Notes under the pieces: model-generated | What the model saw: the letters and a program-made list of their open reading frames with translations, nothing else | What the model was told of the DNA's origin: nothing | Database searches by the model: none | DNA from: Parcubacteria group bacterium | Lineage (GTDB): Bacteria > Patescibacteriota > Minisyncoccia > Moranbacterales > GCA-2747515 | Assembly (NCBI GenBank): GCA_041660065.1 | Contig: JBAZXC010000004.1 | Span: forward strand, 10,098 to 74,097 | Direction of reading: 5' to 3' | Length of the DNA stretch: 64,000 nucleotides | Position numbers and translations under genes: made by a program | Shown here: positions 49,263-63,297 of the stretch, piece after piece | Layout: each line of letters starts with the position of its first letter | Numbering within the stretch: position 1 is the stretch's first letter

Positions 49263-49443
49263 TAAAAAAAGAATGGCTTAGCGGCAAGTGTGAAAAAACT
49301 TGCCGCTTTTTACTTTTTAATCGTCTGTTGTTCTGTTTACTCGCAGGGACGGTATGTTGTTACCTTTTGTTTTTTTGTGTACTATGATATAGTACTTCGG
49401 ATCGTGAAAATGGAAGTAAGATCAATAGAATGCAATAAATAAT

Positions 49444-49528
49444 GGTGAGGTGGCCGAGTGGTTGAAGGCGCACGCTTGGAAAGCGTGTTAGGGGCAACTC
49501 TACGCAGGTTCGAATCCTGTCCTCACCG
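49444..49528 (+). tRNA. tRNA-Ser (anticodon GGA)
   Basis: Cloverleaf: acceptor GGTGAGG/CCTCACC, anticodon loop cTTGGAAa, long variable arm, T-loop GGTTCGAATCC; no encoded CCA. Confidence 0.8.
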
Positions 49529-49530
49529 CC

Positions 49531-49640
49531 CTGTACCGTACGGTACAGGGCTCCGCCAGAAATAAAAAACGGAGTCAAATATCGTACGAAAAAACAGTCC
49601 TACGCCATACGATACAGGACTGTTTTTGTATGGGGAAGAA
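49531..49640. repeat. cassette-boundary repeat, partial (central hairpin CCCTGTACCGTACGGTACAGGG + right arm)
   Basis: Lies immediately 3' of tRNA-Ser(GGA); shares the hairpin and a CTGTTTTTGTATGGGGAAGAATAGACGTTGAAATTTTTTTG arm with the repeats at 55931, 56861, 58450 and 62503. Confidence 0.6.
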
Positions 49641-49725
49641 TAGACGTTGAAATTTTTTTGCTGTGAATTATGATAGACAATTCACTTAAATATGCTACGA
49701 TGAGCTTACAAATTAATGGTTTTTC

Positions 49726-50715
49726 ATGTCTATGAAACCGATCATGCAGGTGAAAAATTTGACTAAGGAATTTGTCTTTCCGGTGAAACAACAGTCGGCA
49801 GGATGGTTCAAAAACTTCGTTGCACCACAAAAACGTACGGTTGTCGCTGTGGACGATGTGTCTTTTAGTGTTGGTGCGGGAGAGCGGATCGCTTTTATCG
49901 GTCCAAATGGCGCAGGGAAGTCCACGACGATCAAAATGCTTACCGGTATTTTGCATCCGACCAGCGGATCGATCGATGTGTTGGGTTTTGATCCGGCACG
50001 CGACCGCAAAAAATTGGCGTATCAGATCGGTACCGTCTTTGGACAGCGATCGCAACTTTTGCCCAATTTACCGCTTACGGACTCGTTGGAATTTTTTGGT
50101 GTGATGTATGATCTGACGGACAAACAGATTGCAGAGCGCATCGCAGAACTTGTGGAACTTTTTGGTCTTCAAAAATTTATGGACCAGCCTGTGCGCAAAT
50201 TGTCTCTCGGTCAGCGTATGCGCGGGGAAGTTGCGGCATCACTGATGCATCGACCGCGGATCATTCTCTTGGATGAGCCGACGATCGGATTGGATGTGGT
50301 TGCAAAGAAGCGATTGCGAGAATTATTGTTGCGCATCAATGCGGAGCAAGGCACGACGATCTTTTTGACATCGCATGATGTGGGAGATATCGAGCTCTTG
50401 TGTGATCGCACGATCGTGATCCATCATGGCGCGATCATCAAAGATTTGCCGACGAAGGAATTGGCGCATACATTCGTTTTTGAAAAATACATCGATCTCA
50501 TCCCGCAGGAAACCTTTCGCCATTTTCCCGCGTTGCCACAGGGCGTGCGATATCTCGTGGAGGACAAAGATAAAATTTCTATTGTTGTAGATATCAGTGT
50601 GATCAGTGTGACGCATGCGCTGACAAAAGTTCTGGCACTTTTTGATGTGCAGGATGTTGATGTTTATGATGCAGATCTGGAAACTGTGATCCGACATATT
50701 TATGAAAAAGCTTAG
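49726..50715 (+). CDS. ABC transporter ATP-binding protein
   Basis: 329 aa; Walker [10 protein letters not shown], signature LSLGQRMR, Walker [12 protein letters not shown]. Confidence 0.8.
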
Positions 50716-51502
50716 ACTCGCGCACAAGATCATCACAACGCTCATCAAAGATCAATGGTATTATCGCGGTCGTGTGATTGCGGATATGATGTTGATGTTT
50801 GTCCGATGCGGGGTGTTGCTTGTGTTGTATGCATATGTATTCCGTCTCAAAAACGGTGTGATCAACGACACGACGTTTGGAGTTGTGGCGTGGAGTATTT
50901 TTTTCTATTTTGCTTTTATCACATTGCGTTTGCGCGAGATCACACGCATGATCATGCAAGATGTGCGCAGTGGTACTGTGGAAACACTCTTTGCCAAACC
51001 AGTGTCATATATCTTTTACCGTGTGATGTGGCAATTGGGCAGCGGGATCAGTTCGTTTGTGATTGTGAGCGTGTGTGGTAGCGCACTACTGATCTGGTGG
51101 GTCGGCATACCGGAAACGATGACGATCGGTATTTTCCTCCCGACACTTTTTGCAGTTTTTTGTGGCGCGATCATATTGACGCTGACACTGTATGCGATCG
51201 TCGGATTTATGGCGTTTTGGATCGAAGATGTGAATCCGATCTTCTGGCTCGTGGATAAAATTGTCATGGTGTTGGGTGGCTCCTATTTGCCGGTCGCACT
51301 TTTCCCGCCTCTCCTGTACAAGGTTGCCGTGTGGAGTCCTTTTGGCGCAGCGAGTTTTATCACACACACAGTGAATGTCTCATGGCAAGAAAAATGGCCG
51401 ATGCTTGTCGGGATCCAAATAATGTGGATTGGCATTGGTCTCGTGGTGTTATATGTGATCAATCATTACGCGCACAAGAGAGTATCGATCAATGGCGGAT
51501 AA
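50702..51502 (+). CDS. ABC-2 family transporter permease
   Basis: 266 aa, 6 TM; overlaps the upstream ATPase gene by 14 nt. Confidence 0.65.
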
Positions 51503-51507
51503 AATAT

Positions 51508-52302
51508 ATGATGAATGACTTGCGATTTGCATTGTATGCGATCAAAAAAAATATTGCGAATAGTACGGAGTTGCGCACAAGTTTTGCGCTCACCGTTTTG
51601 GGTATGGCGATCAATAACGTGTCATTTCTCGTAATTTGGATTTTCTTCATACAGTCTGTGGGAGAGATCAACGGATGGCGTGCAATTGATATCCTCGCTC
51701 TGGATGGCTTTGTGGCACTGTCATATGGGATCACATTTTCGATCTTTGTCGGCATCAAATTATTACCACAATATGTCGCAGACGGTGTCTTTGACCGCTT
51801 CTTGCTCTCGCCAAAAAATGTACTTCTGCGTGTGGCAACATCGGCATTTCACGCCTCAGCCGTGGGTGATTTTGTATTTGGCGTGGCGTGCTTTGGTATC
51901 TATGCATGGGTTGTGGATATACATATCACACAATTGATGATCCTATTTCTCTTGACGATCAATGCGACGGTGATGTTTTTTGTCGTGAGTGTTTTGATCT
52001 ATTCTGCGAGTTTTTATTTTACTGATGCGTATTCTGTGACATATAGTCTCTTTGACCTCTTCATGACGCCGACACTTTTTCATGGAGGGTTATTTCATGG
52101 GACGATGCGTTTTATCTTTACATTCCTTATCCCGTCACTCGTGATCGGAGCATTGCCGACAGAAATTCTCGCATCCGTGTCAGTCGTACACATGCTTGTA
52201 TTGATGGGTATTACGGCTGTATGGTTTGCGGGAGCGATGTGGTTTTTTCGCCACTCGATCAAACGGTATGAAAGTGCCAATTTCATGACATTTGGGAGGT
52301 AA
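51508..52302 (+). CDS. ABC-2 family transporter permease (second subunit)
   Basis: In-frame ATGATG at 51508 just after the upstream stop, so the 51331 start in the ORF track is probably too long; 6 TM. Confidence 0.6.
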   Translation: MMNDLRFALYAIKKNIANSTELRTSFALTVLGMAINNVSFLVIWIFFIQSVGEINGWRAIDILALDGFVALSYGITFSIFVGIKLLPQYVADGVFDRFLLSPKNVLLRVATSAFHASAVGDFVFGVACFGIYAWVVDIHITQLMILFLLTINATVMFFVVSVLIYSASFYFTDAYSVTYSLFDLFMTPTLFHGGLFHGTMRFIFTFLIPSLVIGALPTEILASVSVVHMLVLMGITAVWFAGAMWFFRHSIKRYESANFMTFGR

Positions 52303-52602: not shown

Positions 52603-52694
52603 TGGAGAGGTGCCAGAGTGGTCGAATGGGACTGACTCGAAATCAGTTGTCTCGTTTTAACGGGACCCAGGGTTCGAATCCCTGCCTCTCCGCC
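52603..52694 (+). tRNA. tRNA-Ser (anticodon CGA)
   Basis: Acceptor GGAGAGG/CCTCTCC, anticodon loop aCTCGAAa, long variable arm, T-loop GGTTCGAATCC, encoded CCA. Confidence 0.75.
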
Positions 52695-52702
52695 AACAAG
52701 AA

Positions 52703-52750
52703 ATCTTATTATCATGCAAATGATAGTGGGATTTTTTGATTGGAGAAGGG
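52703..52750. repeat. about 46-bp direct repeat, copy 1 (AATCTTATTATCATGCAAATGATAGTGGGATTTTTTGATTGGAGAAGG)
   Basis: Near-identical to 63252-63297 (AATCCTATTATCATGTAAATGACAATGGGATTTTTTGATTGGAGATG); the two copies bracket about 10.5 kb of accessory genes next to tRNA-Ser(CGA). Confidence 0.6.
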
Positions 52751-52868
52751 AGGGATTCGAACATGGAAAGGGGTCGGGAAAACGATAGTTTCCCCGTGGT
52801 GGAAGTATTGAAACCGCAAGGTGTCAAAGAGCGAAGCGACGTGAGATTCCCTGCCTCTCCGCAAATAA
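52743..52868. other. tRNA-like fragment / att-type duplication of tRNA-Ser 3' end
   Basis: GGAGAAGGGAGGGATTCGAAC resembles the reverse complement of a tRNA T-arm and acceptor stem, and GAGATTCCCTGCCTCTCCGCA repeats the 3' end of tRNA-Ser(CGA); it does not fold as a complete canonical tRNA by eye. Confidence 0.4.
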
Positions 52869-53055
52869 TCTCTTATTTTTTATAATGCGAAATTTTCTGA
52901 GTGGAGTAGAGTGATTCGATCTGACGATGCTATAAGTGAAGTTTGTAAAATTGTAACTCGAAAAAATTGAAATAAAAATAAAAAACTCCCGAGATTCTCG
53001 GGAGGTTTATTTGTTTAATCTCCAGTCACTGTTTGATGACAATAATTATTGATTA

Positions 53056-54132
53056 TTATTCCAATGGAAGCATTTTTAGTGTCTGCAAAGATTTGCTTTT
53101 GGAAACGATACCAAGTTTTTTGAGAAACAGCATCAAGATTGAGCTTGTTAGAAAAATAAGAACAACTGGCGTTCGAACTGCTGCAAGCAAATCCCAAATG
53201 GCACTAAGAGTTCCTGATTTGCCATAGAAAGGCCAGCCGATGATGATGCACATTGCCATGAACATCCCTGCGATTTTACTGTTTTTCTCACTAAATCCGA
53301 TTTTTTCGGATATAAAATTAAGTCCAGAAACACCCGAATCAATTGAACTTACGGCAAGTGAAATCATTAGAATAAGAAACATGATTCCAAGATAGAGATT
53401 ATCGTTGAAATAAAATGCGACAATCATAACAAAAAACATGTAAATTGCAAACCATGCACATGCCCACATTCCAGTAGGAATCATTCTTTCTTCTTTGATT
53501 GCTGAGAGTTTTTGATGGTGGTGAGCGTGGGTGAGTGAGCCAATGATGATGCCTGAGAAATTGAATAGCGCAATCATCTTCCAGTCAACGCCTTTTGATA
53601 GGACGATATTATTCATAGTGCCGTCATTTGTTACAAATGCAGTTATTGCCATTGCAATGATAGCTGTTATCTGACCTATATAGGCTCCAATATCAGTTAT
53701 CATTAGAAATCGAAGTCCTCCAAATTTTACATAGAAAATTGTAATAGATGCAAATGCTACAATCAGCCATGTTGCTGTTTCTTTACTCACAAAGACATAT
53801 GTGGCAAATTTTTCATGACCTCCGGTAAGTGCTACCATCAATCCTTTCATATTTATGTTGATGGTGAGAAATGCTAGGAATGTAAAAAGTAGTAGCATCG
53901 GAATATAGTTCCCCCAGTTTTTACTGGAAGGAACATGTCGTCGAATAAATGCGGTGAGTGGGATAGCCAGACAATTGCCCACAATCCATGCAATTGCAGG
54001 AAGAAATCCTTCTGCATACATTTTGGACATTCCAACCACAATGGAAAAGCCCCAAGACCAATCAGCTGCCAGAGACATTCCTACACGCCAATTAGGAAAA
54101 TTTTCGATGTCATCAATATTCACGTTTCTCAT
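53056..54132 (-). CDS. polytopic membrane transporter (about 12 TM), family uncertain
   Basis: 358 aa, the only minus-strand gene in the accessory array; hydrophobic throughout; HAHHHQ loop. Confidence 0.55.
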   Translation of the reverse strand: MRNVNIDDIENFPNWRVGMSLAADWSWGFSIVVGMSKMYAEGFLPAIAWIVGNCLAIPLTAFIRRHVPSSKNWGNYIPMLLLFTFLAFLTININMKGLMVALTGGHEKFATYVFVSKETATWLIVAFASITIFYVKFGGLRFLMITDIGAYIGQITAIIAMAITAFVTNDGTMNNIVLSKGVDWKMIALFNFSGIIIGSLTHAHHHQKLSAIKEERMIPTGMWACAWFAIYMFFVMIVAFYFNDNLYLGIMFLILMISLAVSSIDSGVSGLNFISEKIGFSEKNSKIAGMFMAMCIIIGWPFYGKSGTLSAIWDLLAAVRTPVVLIFLTSSILMLFLKKLGIVSKSKSLQTLKMLPLE

Positions 54133-54389
54133 GATTCACTCCTTATCTTCTGAGGTTGGTTCAAATTTTAAAAGTACACTAAAATAAAATTAATGATCTC
54201 TATGCAAAGATCAGTTCAATATTGCATATTTTTGATAAATTGTCAAGAGAATAAGTTGTTGTGGATGTTGACAAAGTTTATTTATTATGATATTAATTAA
54301 CATTCGAGTTCCTTAACAAAAAGAGCTTGAGTTTTGATGGGGGAGGCACATTTCTATTCAGTGGATTTAAAAACTATTGAGCGCATAAA

Positions 54390-55748
54390 GTGAAGGAGGT
54401 TGATTTCATGAAAACATGTTTAGATTTTAAGAGAGCGTTGGTGGAGAGTGGCCTGATGGATTTTGCAGAGGAAACATCCTTGGCAGTTTGGTTGGGTGAC
54501 GGCATGAAGATGCTTCGAATTTTGGAGAGAAAGATTATAGAGCTTTTTGAACTGCAGGGTTATGAAGAGGGACGTTTCCCGCTCTTAGCTCACAGAAGTC
54601 ATTTCAACAAGCTTTGTATGGAAATTTGCAATTTTGATGGAGGTGTTTTTTGCATTGAAGGAAAAAGTGACTTACTTCTGCGACCCTCTGGTGAAATTGT
54701 GTTTTATCCTCTTTTTGCAAAGTGGTCAAAAAAAAGAGGTCTTCCTCTAAGGTTTTTTTCCATTGGACAAATGTTTCGTCAAGGATCTGCTCAAAAGATA
54801 TTTCGTCAGTGTGAGAATGATATGTTTGTAGAAGGACATGCCTCATTTAAAAATGCAGGAGAGGCGCATATTGAAGTAGATCGTCTTAATGATATTTTGA
54901 GGAGTTGGTTTTCCATTCTTTCACTTCCAGTCTTGATCGTGGACCGTCCAGGTGAAACAAATAAGCCTGTGGCAGAAAGGCACATTGGTTTTGATGGCAT
55001 TTTGCCAACGGGGGAGACCATTCTTCTTGGCGCCTCGTATTATCAAGGACAAATTTTTTCTCGTGTCTTTAATATTAAAAATCGAGACACTGCAGATTTT
55101 GCATATCAGGCGGAAGCAGGATTTTCATCCAGAGCGATCCTAGCATCTCTATGGGTGCATGCGGACAAAAAAGGATTGGTATTGCCGAGTAGTTTTGCTC
55201 CTATTCAAGTGGCAATCATTCCTAGCAGTAAAGATGCTGGCATGCTTTTGCAGGCAGAGAAAATAAAAAAAGATCTCAATGTGGCTGGAATTCGAGTAAG
55301 GATTCAAATCCCAGAACGAAATAAAAGAGTCTTTTATCAGAATTTGGAGATATCCGGCTATCCGGTAGTAATTCGATTGAATGAAACAGACACTTGTCAA
55401 GTTTACTATCGTTTTGATGATCGATGTGATAGTGATCCAAAAAATCTTTTATTGGAAGTGAGTGAATACTTGAAAAATTTGGACGGCAGAATTCTGAGAA
55501 AAGCAGTGGATGCTCATATTTCCAAGATGATTTTTGTTTGCGAAGATGCAAGAATAATCATTGATGTCCTTAATAGTCAAAAAGTAGCTCAGATATTCCT
55601 CTGTAGTGAATCTACCTGTTTGCATGGAGTTAAAACCAGCGTTGGTCGAGGTGAGATGATTGGTTGGGATTATTCTAGTCAAGAGCGGGGTGCGTGTATT
55701 CAATGCGGAAAGGAAGGTAGACGTGCATATTATGCTAGAAGAATCTAG
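54390..55748 (+). CDS. archaeal/eukaryote-type prolyl-tRNA synthetase homolog with substituted motif 2
   Basis: 452 aa colinear with class IIa ProRS: LLLRPSGE, motif-2 region GQMFRQGSAQKIFRQCENDMFVEGH (the canonical FRxE is altered to FRQG), motif-3-like GFSSR, anticodon-binding domain APIQVAIIPS, and a C-terminal Zn motif CIQCGKEGRRAYYARRI. Confidence 0.65.
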   Translation: MKEVDFMKTCLDFKRALVESGLMDFAEETSLAVWLGDGMKMLRILERKIIELFELQGYEEGRFPLLAHRSHFNKLCMEICNFDGGVFCIEGKSDLLLRPSGEIVFYPLFAKWSKKRGLPLRFFSIGQMFRQGSAQKIFRQCENDMFVEGHASFKNAGEAHIEVDRLNDILRSWFSILSLPVLIVDRPGETNKPVAERHIGFDGILPTGETILLGASYYQGQIFSRVFNIKNRDTADFAYQAEAGFSSRAILASLWVHADKKGLVLPSSFAPIQVAIIPSSKDAGMLLQAEKIKKDLNVAGIRVRIQIPERNKRVFYQNLEISGYPVVIRLNETDTCQVYYRFDDRCDSDPKNLLLEVSEYLKNLDGRILRKAVDAHISKMIFVCEDARIIIDVLNSQKVAQIFLCSESTCLHGVKTSVGRGEMIGWDYSSQERGACIQCGKEGRRAYYARRI

Positions 55749-55930
55749 ATAATAGAAATTGTTTAAATCAAAAAGCCGAGGATGAATTTCATCTGAGGCT
55801 TTTAAATTTTTTATGATGTTCTTTCGATATCCATTTTTGTTAGATATTAAGATGTTTTTTATGAAAGTCCTTCATAGTGAAAAATATTGTAGGAAAATTT
55901 CATCGTTGTTTTTGCAGGTTTTATTAATTA

Positions 55931-56037
55931 TTCATCAAAAACGTTCCAATATTGTCCCACACTCCCCGCCCTGTACCGTACGGTACAGGGCTGTTTTTGT
56001 ATAGTGGGGTATGGACGTGGAACTTTTTGTGATATTC
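55931..56037. repeat. cassette-boundary composite repeat (full copy)
   Basis: Left arm TTCATCAAAAACGTTCCAATATTGTCCCACACTCCCCG, hairpin CCCTGTACCGTACGGTACAGGG, right arm CTGTTTTTGTATAGTGGGGTATGGACGTGGAACTTTTTGTGATAT; the arms are imperfect inverted repeats of each other. Confidence 0.7.
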
Positions 56038-56059
56038 TTATTATGAAATTTAAAAATAT

Positions 56060-56854
56060 ATGATTATTGATACGCACGTACATATCTCACTTTTTGAGAA
56101 TAATGCAAAAAATTTAAAAGAAGCATTTGAAATTCTTTTAAATGATATGCAAAAATACAATATTGAACGAGCGATCATTGTTCCAGATAATATTGAAAAC
56201 AGTGATCAAATAGCAGATTTGGAAAAAGCGATTGAATTGATTGGAGACAAAAAGAATTTCTATTTTCTTGGCAGTCCGCAGATTATTCAACGTGGATCAA
56301 GTGAGTTAGAAAAATATCAAAAATTGATAAAAGAGAAAAAAATCGTTGGTCTCAAATTTTTTCCAGGTCATGATCCATATTATCCGACAGATGAAAGATG
56401 TGTGCCGTATTACAAATTATGCCAAGATCTTGAGGTGCCTGTGCTGTTTCACACTGGCGAAAATACAGGAAACAGTGAATGCGCACAGTGGAATGATCCA
56501 AAATATATTGTGGAGATCACAAAGGAATTTCCACGATTGAAAGTCATTATCACGCATTATTTTTGGCCACGAATGGACTATTGTTATGAATTGACCAAAA
56601 ACGTTCCAAATATCTATTTTGAAACTGCGGCTATGGCTGATGAGGAAGTTGTGGAAAAAAGTGGTGGCATTGGAAAAGTGAGAGAAATATTACATAAAAC
56701 TATCGTGGATAGACCTGCTAAGGTTATTTTTGGCACAGATTGGCCAATGTGCAAGATTGAAGAACATATCAATTTGATAAGATCACTGGGTCTTGAAAAG
56801 GAAATTGAGGAGAAGATATTTAGCAGTAATGCAGTCAAGATTTACAATATTTGA
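56060..56854 (+). CDS. amidohydrolase-2 family metal-dependent hydrolase (TIM barrel)
   Basis: 264 aa; IIDTHVHI at the N-terminus, and internal His and Asp ligands (FGTDWP). Confidence 0.7.
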   Translation: MIIDTHVHISLFENNAKNLKEAFEILLNDMQKYNIERAIIVPDNIENSDQIADLEKAIELIGDKKNFYFLGSPQIIQRGSSELEKYQKLIKEKKIVGLKFFPGHDPYYPTDERCVPYYKLCQDLEVPVLFHTGENTGNSECAQWNDPKYIVEITKEFPRLKVIITHYFWPRMDYCYELTKNVPNIYFETAAMADEEVVEKSGGIGKVREILHKTIVDRPAKVIFGTDWPMCKIEEHINLIRSLGLEKEIEEKIFSSNAVKIYNI

Positions 56855-56860
56855 TAATTT

Positions 56861-56966
56861 CTCATCAAAAACGTTCCAACATCGTCCCACACTCCCCGCC
56901 CTGTACCGTACGGTACAGGGCTGTTTTTGAATAAGGAGGTAGGGATGTGGAACTTTTTGTGATATG
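56861..56966. repeat. cassette-boundary composite repeat (full copy)
   Basis: CTCATCAAAAACGTTCCAACATCGTCCCACACTCCCCG + CCCTGTACCGTACGGTACAGGG + CTGTTTTTGAATAAGGAGGTAGGGATGTGGAACTTTTTGTGATATG. Confidence 0.7.
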
Positions 56967-57082
56967 ATAATCGTATAAATTGAAATCATTTATCTAGGAC
57001 CGTCCTAGTTATATATTTCGAGGTTTTTATTCCCTGTAGAGCGTGTATTGACACAAATACGCTCTACAGGTAAGATAGCAAT

Positions 57083-58054
57083 ATGAAAGCAACATTATCT
57101 AATTCCGATTATTTACGTAATTTTGACCGCTTTATCAGCAGTTTAGATTTTTCTGATCCTGATAATCTTCGTATTTATTCTCATCCAAAGTGGATCAATG
57201 TGCATCCTGCTGTTTTAGCTTTAATTGTAGAAATGGCGATGCGGGCAGGTAAGCAGAATGTTACGTTTGAAAATATTACAGCAACTTCCGGTTCGTATCT
57301 TGATCGTATGGGGCTTTTTGAATTCACACATCAAAAGTCACCATATACTATTAACAAGAAAGAAGAATCGGGAAGATTTATACCCGTCACGATTATCAAA
57401 AATTCTACCGAGCAGTCAAAATTTATTACTGACATGATTCCTCTTTTGCATTTACCTGCTGATAAAACGGATGCTATTAAATATACGATTGGGGAACTGC
57501 TTCGTAATGTATTGGAACACTCAGGAAGTACGCATGGAGCGATTGTTGCGGCTCAATACTATAAAAAATCAAACACAATTCGTATTGGTATTTGTGATGG
57601 CGGTATTGGTATTAAAAAGAGTCTGCAACACTATTGGGCTTCTCGGTCAAAGACAGATATAGCTGCAATCAAATGGGCAATGGTACCCGGTATTTCGGGG
57701 ACAACACGAAAAGAAGGCGGAACAGAAGATAATGCTGGTGCCGGATTATTTTTCATTAAATCTATCGCGCAAGTAGCACGTAACTATTTCATGATTTACA
57801 GTGGATCCGGTATTTATAAACTACTACTTCACGATAAGAGAATAGAGAAACCACGGCTCCATTCCGATCCGGATGACGATCGTCATTCTGAACGCGACGA
57901 CGCCCCTTATTTTCAAGGGACATTGGTGGCAATAGATTTATCCCTTGAAAATAAATCTGAATTTACCCAGCTTCTCTCTGCGATACGAGAAGTTTATGGC
58001 AAGGCGGTTAGGGATCGTAAGCGAAAGAAATATAAAGAACCAAAATTTATATGA
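57083..58054 (+). CDS. GHKL-type ATPase (HATPase_c-like) with N-terminal uncharacterised domain
   Basis: 323 aa; N-box ELLRNVLEHS and G1 box ICDGGIGI; the stop overlaps the next start (ATGA). Confidence 0.6.
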   Translation: MKATLSNSDYLRNFDRFISSLDFSDPDNLRIYSHPKWINVHPAVLALIVEMAMRAGKQNVTFENITATSGSYLDRMGLFEFTHQKSPYTINKKEESGRFIPVTIIKNSTEQSKFITDMIPLLHLPADKTDAIKYTIGELLRNVLEHSGSTHGAIVAAQYYKKSNTIRIGICDGGIGIKKSLQHYWASRSKTDIAAIKWAMVPGISGTTRKEGGTEDNAGAGLFFIKSIAQVARNYFMIYSGSGIYKLLLHDKRIEKPRLHSDPDDDRHSERDDAPYFQGTLVAIDLSLENKSEFTQLLSAIREVYGKAVRDRKRKKYKEPKFI

Positions 58055-58365: not shown

Positions 58366-58449
58366 TAACGATAGATGCAATTTAGTTGTAGAAAATCCGC
58401 AAAGCACTGTGGATGCTGAATAATTGGGGTCAGGCACCTTTTATCCAGG

Positions 58450-58498
58450 GGCTGTTTTTGTATAGAGAGGTAGGGACGTGTGGAACTTTTTATGATAT
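58450..58498. repeat. cassette-boundary repeat, right arm only
   Basis: GGCTGTTTTTGTATAGAGAGGTAGGGACGTGTGGAACTTTTTATGATAT. Confidence 0.6.
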
Positions 58499-58524
58499 GC
58501 TGAAAGCATATTTTATATAAATTT

Positions 58525-59196: not shown

Positions 59197-59207
59197 ATCA
59201 TATTTTT

Positions 59208-59278
59208 TCATCAAAAAAGTTCCAACGTCGTCCCACTCCTTGTAAAGGAAATCACGCAATTTACTGCGTGGTTTTTTT
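59208..59278. repeat. cassette-boundary repeat, left arm + terminator hairpin
   Basis: TTCATCAAAAAAGTTCCAACGTCGTCCCACTCC, then CACGCAatttacTGCGTGGTTTTTTT. Confidence 0.6.
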
Positions 59279-59515: not shown

Positions 59516-59926
59516 ATGAAACAGTATAGTATTTTTATAAGTCATTCATGGGCTTATGGCGAAAACTATAATAGGCTCATCAAAATGCTTAATAATGATC
59601 CCTATTTTCATTTTAAAGATTATTCTGTTCCAAAGCATGATCCCATTCATAATGCTCCAAATCAACTTCTTTTAAAGCAAGCGATTGCAAATCAAATAAG
59701 ATTTTGTGATGTCGTAATAATATTAGCGGGTGTTTATTCAACATATAGCAAGTGGATCAATATTGAAATTGACATTGCTAAGAATGGCTTTCAATATCCA
59801 AAATCTATTCTTGCAATTGAGCCTTGGGCTAGTGAAAAAACATCACAAATTGTCAAGAAAAATGCCGATAAAATAGTTAGGTGGCAAACATGTTCAATTG
59901 TTGATGCAATAAAAGGATTAGCCTAA
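59516..59926 (+). CDS. TIR-like domain protein (DUF1863/ThsB-like)
   Basis: 136 aa; YSIFISHSWAYGENY...CDVVIILAGVYSTYSKWINIEIDIA fits the bacterial TIR-like pattern (FIShS ... S.W...E); AT-rich (about 30% GC); 12 nt upstream of the next gene. Confidence 0.5.
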   Translation: MKQYSIFISHSWAYGENYNRLIKMLNNDPYFHFKDYSVPKHDPIHNAPNQLLLKQAIANQIRFCDVVIILAGVYSTYSKWINIEIDIAKNGFQYPKSILAIEPWASEKTSQIVKKNADKIVRWQTCSIVDAIKGLA

Positions 59927-59938
59927 ATCATAATCTTT

Positions 59939-60466
59939 ATGGATATTAAAAAATTGGAAGAAAAACTATTTGTTTCGAAGAATGAAAATTATGGAGATAA
60001 ATATATAGAACACTTATTGGAACAATATAAGGTTTATATTGACTCTGCAGAAAAAATAAGTGATCGTAGACAAAAATCAAATGAATTTTTTCTTGCTTTA
60101 AATAGTAGCTTGGTTGCATTATTGGGATATATACTTGCGAAAAATAGTGATTCAGAAATAGTAAGCTTGTTCATTCTATCTTCTATTTCAGGGATCGTAT
60201 TATGTTATTTTTGGTATAGAATTATTTATTCTTATAAATGTTTAAATAGTGGAAAATTCAAAGTTATTCACATGATTGAAAGACGATTACCACTAGCGCT
60301 TTATGACACAGAATGGGAAATATTGGAAAGAGGAAAAAACAAGAAAGTTTACTGGCCGTTCTCGCATATTGAGCTCATGGTCCCTTGGATATTTATTATT
60401 ATTTATATAACCATTTTATTTCTCAACCTATGTCCAAAAATAGGAGCGTTGATATGTGCAATGTAA
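59939..60466 (+). CDS. small 3-TM protein, SLATT-like candidate effector (paralog 1)
   Basis: 175 aa; an N-terminal amphipathic helix, two closely spaced TM helices (FFLALNSSLVALLGYIL / IVSLFILSSISGIVLCYFWY), a soluble loop and a C-terminal TM; overlaps the next gene by 11 nt. Confidence 0.5.
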   Translation: MDIKKLEEKLFVSKNENYGDKYIEHLLEQYKVYIDSAEKISDRRQKSNEFFLALNSSLVALLGYILAKNSDSEIVSLFILSSISGIVLCYFWYRIIYSYKCLNSGKFKVIHMIERRLPLALYDTEWEILERGKNKKVYWPFSHIELMVPWIFIIIYITILFLNLCPKIGALICAM

Positions 60467-61001
60467 ATGGAGGATAAATATGAAAAAAGAAAAAAACATA
60501 GAATTAATTTATTCTGAGGTAAAAGAGAGATTAAATAGGCAGATAGATTCCATAGATCAGGTGGCAGTTAAATTTAATTTTTTACTTGCGCTTAATAGTA
60601 TAATATTGGCTTCACTCTTACAATCTAACCTTTTAGGATCTCGAAAGGAATGTATTTCATGGATGATGTTTTTTGCAGTAGTGTGCTTTTTTTTATCAAT
60701 CCTATTTGACTTGAGAGGGCTAGTTATGCAAAAGTATAGACGAGATCCTGATCCACAAAAACTTTATGAAGGATATTTCAACAAATCAAAGCAATATACT
60801 CAAGAAGTCTTAATCATTAATTACGTGCATGCTTTCAATGAAAATGTGAAAAAATTACATCATGTTAACAAATTTTTTGCTTATTCAATATTTTCTTCCT
60901 CTATTGCTTTAATATTTGTTTTTATAAATTTAATTAATCCTAATTTAATTTTCATATGGAAAATGATAATAAAGATGATGTGTCAGATATGCCAAAGTTA
61001 G
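60456..61001 (+). CDS. small 3-TM protein, SLATT-like candidate effector (paralog 2)
   Basis: 181 aa; same architecture as the upstream gene; shared LALNS(I/S)(I/L)LAxLL motif. Confidence 0.5.
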   Translation: MQCKWRINMKKEKNIELIYSEVKERLNRQIDSIDQVAVKFNFLLALNSIILASLLQSNLLGSRKECISWMMFFAVVCFFLSILFDLRGLVMQKYRRDPDPQKLYEGYFNKSKQYTQEVLIINYVHAFNENVKKLHHVNKFFAYSIFSSSIALIFVFINLINPNLIFIWKMIIKMMCQICQS

Positions 61002-61598: not shown

Positions 61599-61655
61599 AA
61601 AAATGAATCAAATATAGTGTTATTAATTAGAAATTTGACAGAAAATATCGTTTGT

Positions 61656-61745
61656 TATCAAAAAAGTTCCAACATCGTCCCACACTCCCCGCACAGATTT
61701 TAAGTCCAAGATAATGGGACTTTTTGATGGGGAAGTTTGTCATTT
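61656..61745. repeat. cassette-boundary composite repeat (variant)
   Basis: TATCAAAAAAGTTCCAACATCGTCCCACACTCCCCG, hairpin AAGTCCaagataatgGGACTT, then TTTTGATGGGGAAGTTTGTCAT. Confidence 0.65.
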
Positions 61746-61766
61746 TTAAACAAGGTCATATAATGA

Positions 61767-62465: not shown

Positions 62466-62502
62466 TAATCATTTTACTTTTGATAAAATGATACTGTTTT
62501 AT

Positions 62503-62628
62503 TCATCAAAAAAGTTATAACATCATCCCACACTCTCCACCAGTTGCTTGCGAAGAAGATTTAGAACAGCTCGTTTTTACGGGCTGTTTTTGTATGGGGA
62601 GATAGAGATGTTGATTTTTTTGTGATAC
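62503..62628. repeat. cassette-boundary composite repeat (full copy, divergent hairpin)
   Basis: TTCATCAAAAAAGTTATAACATCATCCCACACTCTCC, variable hairpin region ...CAGCTCGTTTTTACGGGCTG, then TTTTTGTATGGGGAGATAGAGATGTTGATTTTTTTGTGATAC. Confidence 0.65.
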
Positions 62629-62665
62629 AGTTAAAATAATAGTTAATTTTATTAACGTAAACCAT

Positions 62666-63180: not shown

Positions 63181-63297
63181 CAAAAAATCTCCACCATCGT
63201 CATGTATCATGCGATGCATGACGCAGTCTCACACTCCCCGCTAACAGAAAATCCTATTATCATGTAAATGACAATGGGATTTTTTGATTGGAGATGA
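63181..63297. repeat. cassette-boundary composite repeat (variant) overlapping copy 2 of the 46-bp direct repeat
   Basis: ...CCACCATCGTCatgtatcatgcgatgcatGACgcagtCTCACACTCCCCG ... AATCCTATTATCATGTAAATGACAATGGGATTTTTTGATTGGAGATG. Confidence 0.6.

Follow-up and report, generated by a model that had tools for sequence, protein, structure and literature searches.

The gene described here lies on the forward strand at positions 54390 to 55748 of a 64-kb stretch of DNA (the window, at its full length) from a metagenome-assembled genome (MAG) of a Parcubacteria bacterium, a member of the candidate phyla radiation (CPR, or Patescibacteria). Its product resembles prolyl-tRNA synthetase (ProRS) of the E type, and the gene stands head-to-head with one encoding a polytopic membrane protein, 275 nt away. 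This pair is the first unit after a tRNA-Ser(CGA) gene, in an island of approximately 10.6 kb between repeats of the tRNA 3' end. The comparisons below indicate that the protein belongs to a separate family of ProRS paralogs that is linked to solute importers in related genomes, and that its proline pocket appears to have been rewritten while the residues for adenylation were kept. The genes and signals at the locus are as follows.

52986..53004: hairpin resembling a bidirectional terminator, 3' of the membrane gene
53056..54132, reverse strand: polytopic membrane protein of 358 aa, probably a diverged, shortened relative of the sodium:solute symporter family (SSF); 100% identical to NCBI WC819_04925
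54133..54407: divergent intergenic region of 275 nt, with a promoter-like TTGACA-17-AATATT at 54246-54218 on the reverse strand (a consensus match alone)
54393..54399, forward strand: Shine-Dalgarno sequence AAGGAGG, 8 nt before ATG 54408, as read from the sequence
54408..55748, forward strand: ProRS-like coding sequence (CDS), 446 aa from ATG 54408 (452 aa for the reading frame from GTG 54390)
55968..55991, forward strand: terminator hairpin behind the ProRS-like gene, at the center of the first inter-cassette repeat of approximately 145 nt (55911-56055)

The intact open reading frame (ORF) at 54390..55748 on the forward strand begins with GTG and encodes 452 aa, and residues are numbered throughout according to this version. 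The sequence 5' of the CDS reads AAAGTG-AAGGAGG-TTGATTTC-ATG, the ATG being that at 54408. In public records, the exact 446-aa ATG product was found on two assemblies and the exact 452-aa GTG version had no record. Since ATG 54408 follows a perfect Shine-Dalgarno sequence and only the 446-aa product is on record, it is most likely the true start of the gene, giving a product of 446 aa. An identical pair of ProRS-like and membrane genes is present on an independent 3.2-kb contig (L071).

Overall resemblance to E-type ProRS

The ProRS-like protein was matched by TIGR00408, the model for E-type ProRS (proS_fam_I), with an E value of 1.8e-55, residues 14 to 445 aligning with positions 13 to 467 of the 475 in the model. 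Its score of 188.7 bits was less than half the equivalog cutoff of 437, and the bacterial-type model TIGR00409 gave it 18.6 bits. In Pfam, the class II core was right at threshold and the anticodon-binding domain PF03129 (E value, 0.001) was under its cutoff. The best relative of solved structure was the ProRS of M. thermautotrophicus (PDB 1nj1; E value, 3.9e-42). A model made by AlphaFold (AF2) from a 10-sequence family alignment (predicted local distance difference test [pLDDT], 76.3; predicted template modeling score [pTM], 0.75) superposed over its full length on 1nj1 (Foldseek template modeling score [TM], 0.77) and on eukaryotic ProRS, with TM values of 0.72 to 0.77 across these structures. 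Its anticodon-binding and C-terminal domains were confident; the active-site loops at 98-146 and 223-231 were poor, and the pocket was not readable. The protein keeps the domain order of a class II catalytic core, a class IIa anticodon-binding domain, and a Zn-binding C-terminal domain. A preliminary description of this DNA had claimed colinearity with E-type ProRS along the whole protein, which the TIGR00408 match, 1nj1, and the superposition all bear out, and two of the segments that it named are present as stated, LLLRPSGE at 95-102 and AYYARRI at 446-452. The four Cys residues of the Zn domain (C405, C410, C436, and C439) are present and are invariant in clade A, the name given here to the nearest relatives of the window protein.

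Residues kept and residues changed in the active site

Conservation was compared in an alignment of 123 full-length sequences, including 50 clearly canonical ProRS, 9 sequences of clade A, and 38 other variants, at the positions that were at least 85% conserved among the canonical ProRS. The relevant segments of the window protein, all on the forward strand, are listed here.

54681..54695: RPSGE (residues 98-102), canonically RPTSE; amine-binding Glu kept, Thr changed to Ser and Ser to Gly
54774..54839: motif 2 and its loop, F129-R130-Q-G132 ... F138-R139-Q-C-E142-N ... F146-V-E148-G-H150
54957..54977: TNKPVAE (190-196); the alignment with 1nj1 sets DKFPG against TNKPV
55032..55061: ASYYQGQIFS (215-224) in place of the canonical (T)SHxLGQNFS, with H217Y and L219Q
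55119..55133: motif 3 core GFSSR (244-248), Arg248 kept
55173..55424: class IIa anticodon-binding domain (approximately residues 262-345), fold retained, AF2 pLDDT of approximately 85 to 94
55437..55745: E-type C-terminal Zn domain with C405, C410, C436, and C439; ends in ARRI, the terminal Tyr gone

Motif 2 and its loop read FRQGS at residues 129-133, FRQCEN at 138-143, and VEGH at 147-150. Relative to canonical ProRS, the window protein has kept Pro64 of motif 1, R98, P99, E102, and F223, as well as R130 of motif 2, R139 and E142 of the loop, E148 and H150, and G244 and R248 of motif 3, together with S246. In human ProRS, the motif-2 Arg (R1152) is the invariant class II arginine that forms a salt bridge with the proline carboxylate, and the motif-3 Arg (R1278) stacks on adenine (PMC8346053). 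By the alignment, the residues for ATP and for the carboxylate and amine of the amino acid (R130, R139, E142, E148, H150, S246/R248, and E102) are retained. In the anticodon-binding domain, E320, G323, P325, R327, and G331 are kept in clade A. At a second set of positions, clade A has replaced the canonical residue.

Position 100: Thr in canonical ProRS; Ser in clade A, 100% conserved
Position 101: Ser in canonical ProRS; Gly in clade A, 100% conserved
Position 132 (the motif-2 Glu): Glu in canonical ProRS; Gly in clade A, invariant
Position 192: Phe in canonical ProRS; Lys in clade A, 100% conserved
Position 194: Gly in canonical ProRS; Val in clade A, 100% conserved
Position 217: His in canonical ProRS; Tyr in clade A, invariant
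Position 219: Leu in canonical ProRS; Gln in clade A, invariant

Among the 50 canonical sequences, T100, S101, and Phe192 were each 100% conserved and the motif-2 Glu was present in 98%; the latter was absent from all 58 members of the variant family. Canonical ProRS have two more residues in the motif-2 loop, and the window protein has also lost the middle Arg of RxRE (RQCEN). At the C terminus, canonical sequences end in Y, the family in RR[FLIVM], and the window protein in ARRI. The C-terminal Tyr is conserved in "almost all" E-type ProRS and stabilizes the active site (PMC11229370). Around the active site, one acidic residue (Glu) has been lost and three basic residues (Lys and two Arg) gained, for a net change of approximately four positive charges. 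The preliminary description had the motif-2 Arg/Glu pair replaced by FRQG and RQCEN; the change of Glu to Gly132 stood, while R130 is in fact kept and RQCEN retains both R139 and E142. More telling are changes that it did not mention, namely F192K, G194V, H217Y, L219Q, T100S/S101G, and the loss of the C-terminal Tyr. Taken together, the alignment indicates that the residues of the proline pocket and its closure have been exchanged for an equally conserved set (S100, G101, G132, K192, V194, Y217, Q219, and a C-terminal RR-I/V), and because clade A shows no variation at the changed positions (100% conservation), this pattern points to selection for a new specificity rather than to decay.

A separate paralog family found mainly in CPR bacteria

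Among 5.8 billion proteins, a word-indexed search returned only three relatives of the same kind, with 30 to 35% identity. When 1.84 billion cluster representatives were searched exhaustively with HMMER, the matches were graded (1,154 at an E value below 1e-3), with the variant signature in approximately half of the top 150. This signature consists of RPSGE, FRxG, NKPV, YxQxQ, and a C-terminal RR-I/V. Across these collections, the nearest relatives of the window protein were 34 to 38% identical to it, the closest, at 38%, being P0022 (locus L005). P0022 also carries an N-terminal extension of 188 residues (residues 1-188; L005:288-860) without a Pfam match.

A neighbor-joining tree was calculated after removal of the nine diagnostic columns and examined by an unrooted split test. 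A single branch had all 58 sequences without the acidic residue of motif 2 on one side, joined by one alignment outlier, and the 64 canonical ProRS on the other. A separation of variant from canonical sequences of at least 95% was obtained in 98 of 100 bootstraps, placing the window protein in a clade apart from the canonical enzymes. A midpoint-rooted test of monophyly based on the most recent common ancestor was uninformative, with the root falling inside the long-branched variant group, and the unrooted split was used instead. Mean identity was 27% among the variants and 23% between variants and canonical ProRS, and the variant family comprises at least 58 clusters at 50% identity. By these measures, the variants form one monophyletic, separately conserved paralog family derived from E-type ProRS.

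When species-representative genomes were scanned with the clade-A alignment, six loci emerged, which belonged to a Moranbacteria, a Gracilibacteria, two Saccharibacteria, an unclassified Patescibacterium, and a MAG labeled as uncultured Gammaproteobacteria. A metagenome scan added seven further clade-A loci (L012-L018). Another 50 metagenome loci (L019-L068) were discarded as ordinary archaeal ProRS, caught through a shared peptide pattern. The family is found mainly in CPR/Patescibacteria. Our literature search found no publication describing it, and a review of aminoacyl-tRNA synthetase (aaRS) duplication (PMC9437257) and an aaRS catalogue give only ProRS-A/B/M and ProRSx.

Gene neighborhoods in relatives

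We surveyed the context of the ProRS-like gene at 14 clade-A loci outside the window. A gene of the SSF (PF00474) adjoined it at 10 of these, and at 8 it was directly upstream on the same strand, 6 of these overlapping the ProRS-like gene by 4 to 41 nt and 2 being spaced by 8 and 28 nt. These partners scored 78.8 to 157.6 bits as clear SSF members and 117 to 158 bits with TIGR00813. At L018, an NMT1-type ATP-binding cassette (ABC) importer took the place of the symporter, and the gene for P0003, a more distant variant, lay inside a Liv-type amino-acid ABC operon. A canonical bacterial-type proS was found within a few kilobases at six of the 14 loci. At L007 and L008 its scores were 421.6 and 383.4 bits, above the cutoff of 306.7 for TIGR00409, and the gene order was proS, SSF, ProRS-like; at L003, L014, L016, and L018 it was recognized by tblastn matches of more than 140 bits. 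Because of this nearby proS, the ProRS-like gene of these six relatives does not encode their sole ProRS but is a paralog. These results show that the ProRS-like gene is coupled genetically to a solute importer and, in relatives, also to an ordinary proS.

Several other features of these loci were recorded. The proS products beside the paralog at L007, L008, L014, and L018 are 403 to 409 aa long and are matched by the bacterial models in two separate stretches, and they appear to be without the INS editing domain. The way in which these organisms clear Ala-tRNA(Pro) might bear on the role of the paralog. In two sub-clades, an adenylate-forming ligase of the PaaK/F390-synthetase type is directly downstream, accompanied by GTP-cyclohydrolase-II-like and SIS-domain proteins. 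At L011, L014, L015, and L016, the cluster is made up of GTP-cyclohydrolase-II-like, SIS-domain, ProRS-like, PaaK/F390-like ligase, SSF, and proS genes, and L012 and L013 have the same genes in a different order. To judge by its gene content, the GTP-cyclohydrolase-II-like/SIS/ProRS-like/PaaK cluster looks like a small-molecule pathway of CPR bacteria. None of the GTP-cyclohydrolase-II-like, SIS, or PaaK/F390 genes occurs in the 64-kb window. At L017, a gene for a peptidase of family S51 (PepE/cyanophycinase family; L017:3150-3812) directly follows the ProRS-like gene with a slight overlap. No tRNA gene adjoined the ProRS-like gene at 16 loci, and no T-box or other riboswitch leader was detected at 15 loci or between 52.4 and 56.2 kb of the window.

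The membrane partner in the window

The membrane protein encoded at 53056-54132 had no match in Pfam or NCBIfam, and its family has three members in the database. Compared alone with the SSF partners of the relatives, it gave a BLASTP E value of 1e-4 over 62 aa and an hhalign probability of 2%. The profile of the three members, compared with the profile of the SSF partners, gave an hhalign probability of 89.8% and an E value of 1.8e-6 over 201 columns spanning the SSF DQQQWQRAFAIKEE region. An AF2 model of the protein had a pLDDT of 38.9, too low to use. The profile comparison makes it probable that the membrane partner is a shortened, diverged relative of the SSF. It shares with the SSF partners of the relatives, members of the family of PutP and PanF, the 201 aligned columns, which include the DQQxWQR-AxKEE region, and differs from these partners (approximately 480 aa) in being approximately 120 residues shorter, in being divergently transcribed, and in lacking a Pfam or NCBIfam match. 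At another locus, the gene fragment at L070:2-307, immediately upstream of P0172, a homolog of this membrane protein, ends in a peptidyl carrier protein (PCP) motif, IFDLGGNSLKAIE, of a carrier domain of the nonribosomal peptide synthetase type. The amino-acid-activating enzymes with which the membrane-protein family pairs may thus be of several kinds.

The tRNA-Ser-associated island

The gene pair occupies the left end of an array with the following landmarks.

49443-49531: tRNA-Ser(GGA), preceding the array
52604..52695, forward strand: tRNA-Ser(CGA), likely integration site and left edge of the island
52686..52746, forward strand: left copy of a 61-nt direct repeat (tRNA 3' end plus terminator), 87% identical to the right copy
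63234..63294, forward strand: right copy of the 61-nt direct repeat, putative distal boundary of the island, 10.5 kb downstream
Repeat sites: 49443-49700, 52604-52862, 55911-56055, 56841-56985, 58449-58514, 59197-59245, 61651-61748, 62492-62646, and 63234-63294

A partial tRNA 3' end is also present at approximately 52845-52862. The units of approximately 145 nt consist of a degenerate 3' strand of the tRNA-Ser T arm and acceptor, then a terminator hairpin, then the first arm inverted, and the hairpin in two of these units is identical to that after tRNA-Ser(GGA). The guanine-plus-cytosine (GC) fraction falls from approximately 0.42 to 0.30-0.37 in the island, whose contents are accessory: an amidohydrolase, a DrmA-like HATPase protein, DUF2268, a ThsB-TIR/8xMP/PycTM-like trio, and ORFans. 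The array looks, from its repeats, like the product of accretion or serial integration of units of 0.9 to 3 kb at a tRNA-Ser att site, and the 61-nt repeats derived from the tRNA 3' end, the GC drop, and the accessory or defense-like genes make the earlier phrase "mobile-looking cassette array" a fair one. No integrase was seen among the annotated genes of the window. An integron is considered unlikely, as no integron-integrase-like ORF was seen among these genes and the repeats resemble tRNA-Ser 3' ends and terminators rather than attC sites.

Three other units of this region were noted. The trio at 59516-61001 consists of co-directional, nearly abutting genes for a ThsB-type TIR protein (PF08937; PADLOC ThsB E value, 7.6e-11), an octameric membrane protein of the 8xMP type (144 bits with PF24838), and a membrane protein similar to PycTM (PADLOC E value, 3.8e-5). 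No ThsA was seen, and the domain matches suggest that it may be a TIR-plus-membrane-effector defense module in a CPR bacterium. The single-gene cassette at 57083-58054 encodes a histidine-kinase-like ATPase of 323 aa, residues 71 to 245 of which match the N-terminal part of DrmA (PADLOC E value, 8.5e-12), with no other DISARM genes nearby. Exactly between the two tRNA-Ser genes, at 49726-52302, is an ABC-2-type transporter operon with an ATPase and at least one ABC2_membrane_6 permease. A right-arm copy of the inter-cassette repeat (49617-49682) precedes this operon, which for that reason may be an older inserted unit.

Comparison with known ProRS and aaRS paralogs

Canonical E-type ProRS (1nj1, TIGR00408, "ProRS-A") shares with the window protein its fold and domain order (TM, 0.77), the motif-2 Arg, the Arg and Glu of the loop, E-x-H, the motif-3 Arg, and the amine-binding Glu. 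The window protein departs from it in score, in RPTSE, in the motif-2 Glu, in the pocket Phe (DKF) and His (SHxLGQNFS), and in the C-terminal Tyr. BtProRS2 of Bacillus thuringiensis is reported to be a second, bona fide E-type ProRS of typical E-type sequence that exists alongside a P-type ProRS (PMC11229370). The coexistence of an E-type-derived protein and a P-type proS is the same as in the six relatives L003, L007, L008, L014, L016, and L018, whereas the variant family differs from BtProRS2 in its rewritten pocket, its lack of the C-terminal Tyr, and its coupling to importers.

ProRSx of Streptomyces is a paralog derived from bacterial-type ProRS and paired with a dedicated gene for tRNA(ProA) (PMC9437257). 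It is likewise a ProRS paralog with a non-housekeeping role, whereas the origin here is E-type, with the window protein scoring far better with TIGR00408 than with TIGR00409, and no tRNA gene adjoins the ProRS-like gene at the loci surveyed. The tRNA-Ser genes of the window are ordinary, lie at least 1.7 kb from the ProRS-like gene, and look like integration sites rather than partner tRNAs. Other aaRS paralogs have non-translational acceptors, among them the SerRS-like amino-acid:carrier-protein ligases, MshC, PoxA/EpmA, and AsnA (PMC9437257). The logic is shared, in that a duplicated synthetase keeps adenylation and changes its substrate and/or acceptor; these proteins differ from the variant family in coming from other parent synthetases and in having generally lost the anticodon-binding domain that is kept here. 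We know of none that is coupled to an SSF importer. Neither the ProRS-like protein nor its membrane partner matched the PADLOC-DB defense models. By the features tested, the window protein is set apart from canonical ProRS, ProRSx, the amino-acid:carrier-protein ligases, and the PADLOC defense models.

Proposed function and alternatives

With no more than moderate confidence, we propose that the ProRS-like protein is an adenylate-forming paralog of altered substrate, that the substrate would be supplied by an importer, and that the acceptor would more likely be a tRNA. The suggestion of the preliminary description that the gene may be a paralog with altered substrate is supported by the monophyly of the family, by a pocket rewritten while the ATP and adenylate residues were kept, and by the proS near the gene at six of the 14 related loci. 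On this proposal, the protein would still make an acyl-adenylate from ATP, probably with a substrate other than plain proline, and its more cationic pocket would suit a more anionic or polar substrate, either proline-like or an amino acid. The substrate would be delivered by the adjacent transporter of the SSF type or, in some relatives, of the ABC type. A tRNA is favored as acceptor because the anticodon-binding domain is kept across the whole family, and a small-molecule acceptor would also be possible. In the window, transporter and enzyme would form a self-contained, divergent two-gene unit that arrived with the tRNA-Ser-associated island. We are much more confident that this is a separate paralog family, importer-linked and not housekeeping in relatives, than of any claim about substrate or acceptor.

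A number of observations weigh against this proposal. The SSF partners of the relatives resemble PutP and PanF weakly and so point to no definite substrate, and in genomes as compact as those of CPR bacteria, genes may be neighbors partly by chance. The replacements T100S and H217Y are fairly conservative, such that proline could still be accepted. The proposed substrate depends on sequence positions mapped onto ProRS structures, and the AF2 model is of low confidence in just these active-site loops (98-146 and 223-231). In the window itself, the partner is truncated, very diverged from the SSF, and on the opposite strand, unlike the partners in relatives; no second or canonical ProRS is present in the 64 kb; and the protein departs from clade A at D117G, Q124S, R327V, and G331N, the last two in the anticodon-binding domain. 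Because of the diverged partner, the lack of a proS in 64 kb, and these four departures, the window copy could be functionally relaxed.

Of the alternatives, the one that survives best, and which we nevertheless consider unlikely, is a second ProRS isozyme that, like BtProRS2, charges tRNA(Pro) with proline and evolves rapidly in CPR bacteria. It would perhaps be specialized for certain conditions, and its regulation would be shared with proS and a proline importer. The full E-type architecture, the retention of the motif-2 and motif-3 Arg, the amine-binding Glu, and E148/H150, and the adjoining proS and symporters with weak PutP similarity are all consistent with such an enzyme, and the occurrence of P-type and E-type ProRS in one bacterium has a published precedent (PMC11229370). 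An isozyme would not be expected, however, to score under half of the TIGR00408 cutoff or to have lost the Tyr that stabilizes the active site, and the pocket positions that are 94 to 100% kept in canonical ProRS (T, S, motif-2 E, F, G, and H) have all been replaced by other invariant residues. Drift in CPR genomes does not explain this pattern, because the P-type ProRS of the same genomes scores above its cutoff.

By analogy with HisZ-HisG or GlnK-AmtB, the protein might instead be a non-catalytic or weakly catalytic sensor-regulator, which would gate the adjacent importer and have the amino acid, ATP, and/or uncharged tRNA as its ligands. The obligate-looking pairing with a transporter, with overlapping stop and start codons, would fit this role, as would the loss of the motif-2 Glu and the C-terminal Tyr and the replacement of the motif-3 Arg by Lys in two members. 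The invariance within the clade of the adenylation residues R130, R139, E142, E148, H150, and E102 would be unusual for purely regulatory aaRS paralogs and makes this reading rather improbable.

We give even less credence to a tRNA-independent ligase of a small-molecule pathway, which, similar to MshC or the amino-acid:carrier-protein ligases, would have a metabolite or a carrier protein as the acceptor of its activated acyl group. Such a role is suggested by the two sub-clades clustered with PaaK/F390-type ligase, GTP-cyclohydrolase-II-like, and SIS-domain genes, and by the homolog of the membrane partner at L070, which lies just downstream of the gene ending in the PCP motif IFDLGGNSLKAIE. 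The anticodon-binding domain is, however, kept throughout the family, whereas most of the aaRS paralogs known to use non-tRNA acceptors are without it. In addition, the window is without the cluster genes, and a six-frame scan of 52 to 64 kb found no phosphopantetheine-attachment (carrier-protein) motif. The absence of this motif and the retained, confidently modeled anticodon-binding domain also speak against the amino-acid:[carrier] ligase raised in the preliminary description.

It is very improbable that the gene is a horizontally acquired copy under relaxed selection and losing function, or a copy conferring resistance to a ProRS inhibitor. The island location, the truncated partner (358 versus approximately 480 aa), and the four otherwise conserved clade positions that differ, two of them in the anticodon-binding domain, are what a relaxed copy might display, but nothing interrupts the 446-codon ORF, which has a perfect Shine-Dalgarno sequence and ATG, none of the catalytic signature residues of the clade has been lost, the identical gene pair occurs in a second assembly, and promoter-like and terminator elements of its own accompany the pair. 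Resistance isozymes retain the canonical catalytic residues and are not known to occur together with importers; the conserved changes in the catalytic pocket and the tight coupling to importers are unlike them, and the earlier suggestion of a resistance copy finds no support here. Finally, a sole, lineage-specific housekeeping ProRS, which the reduced genome of this CPR MAG and the lack of another ProRS in the 64-kb window might suggest and which the preliminary description had offered as its "sole but atypical ProRS," is scarcely credible, given the canonical proS that adjoins the paralog in six relatives and contradicts this reading there, the low-GC, tRNA-flanked accessory island, in which an essential gene present once per genome would hardly be expected, and the rarity of the family among billions of proteins, whereas every CPR genome needs a ProRS.

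Implications

If the ProRS-like protein is indeed an altered-substrate, adenylate-forming paralog, it and its SSF or ABC partner might, as a tentative extension, make up an unrecognized two-component "import-and-activate" module of CPR bacteria, in which a non-proline substrate, possibly acidic or hydroxylated and proline-like, would be imported, adenylated, and loaded onto a tRNA or another acceptor. Paralogs of aaRS have taken on unexpected chemistries, among them EF-P lysylation, mycothiol synthesis, carrier-protein loading, and deliberate mistranslation, and CPR/Patescibacteria rely on imported building blocks. Were the module real, it could serve the aminoacylation of envelope components or metabolites or the deliberate alternative charging of tRNA(Pro), and the family would constitute a new functional class of aaRS paralogs that is mobile on tRNA-targeted islands. 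Members of the family are at risk of annotation as "proline--tRNA ligase," which would inflate the apparent complement of translation genes in CPR genomes. Knowledge of the substrate and acceptor of these proteins could bring to light either a new pathway of aminoacyl transfer or a new way in which scavenged amino acids are used by ultra-small bacteria.

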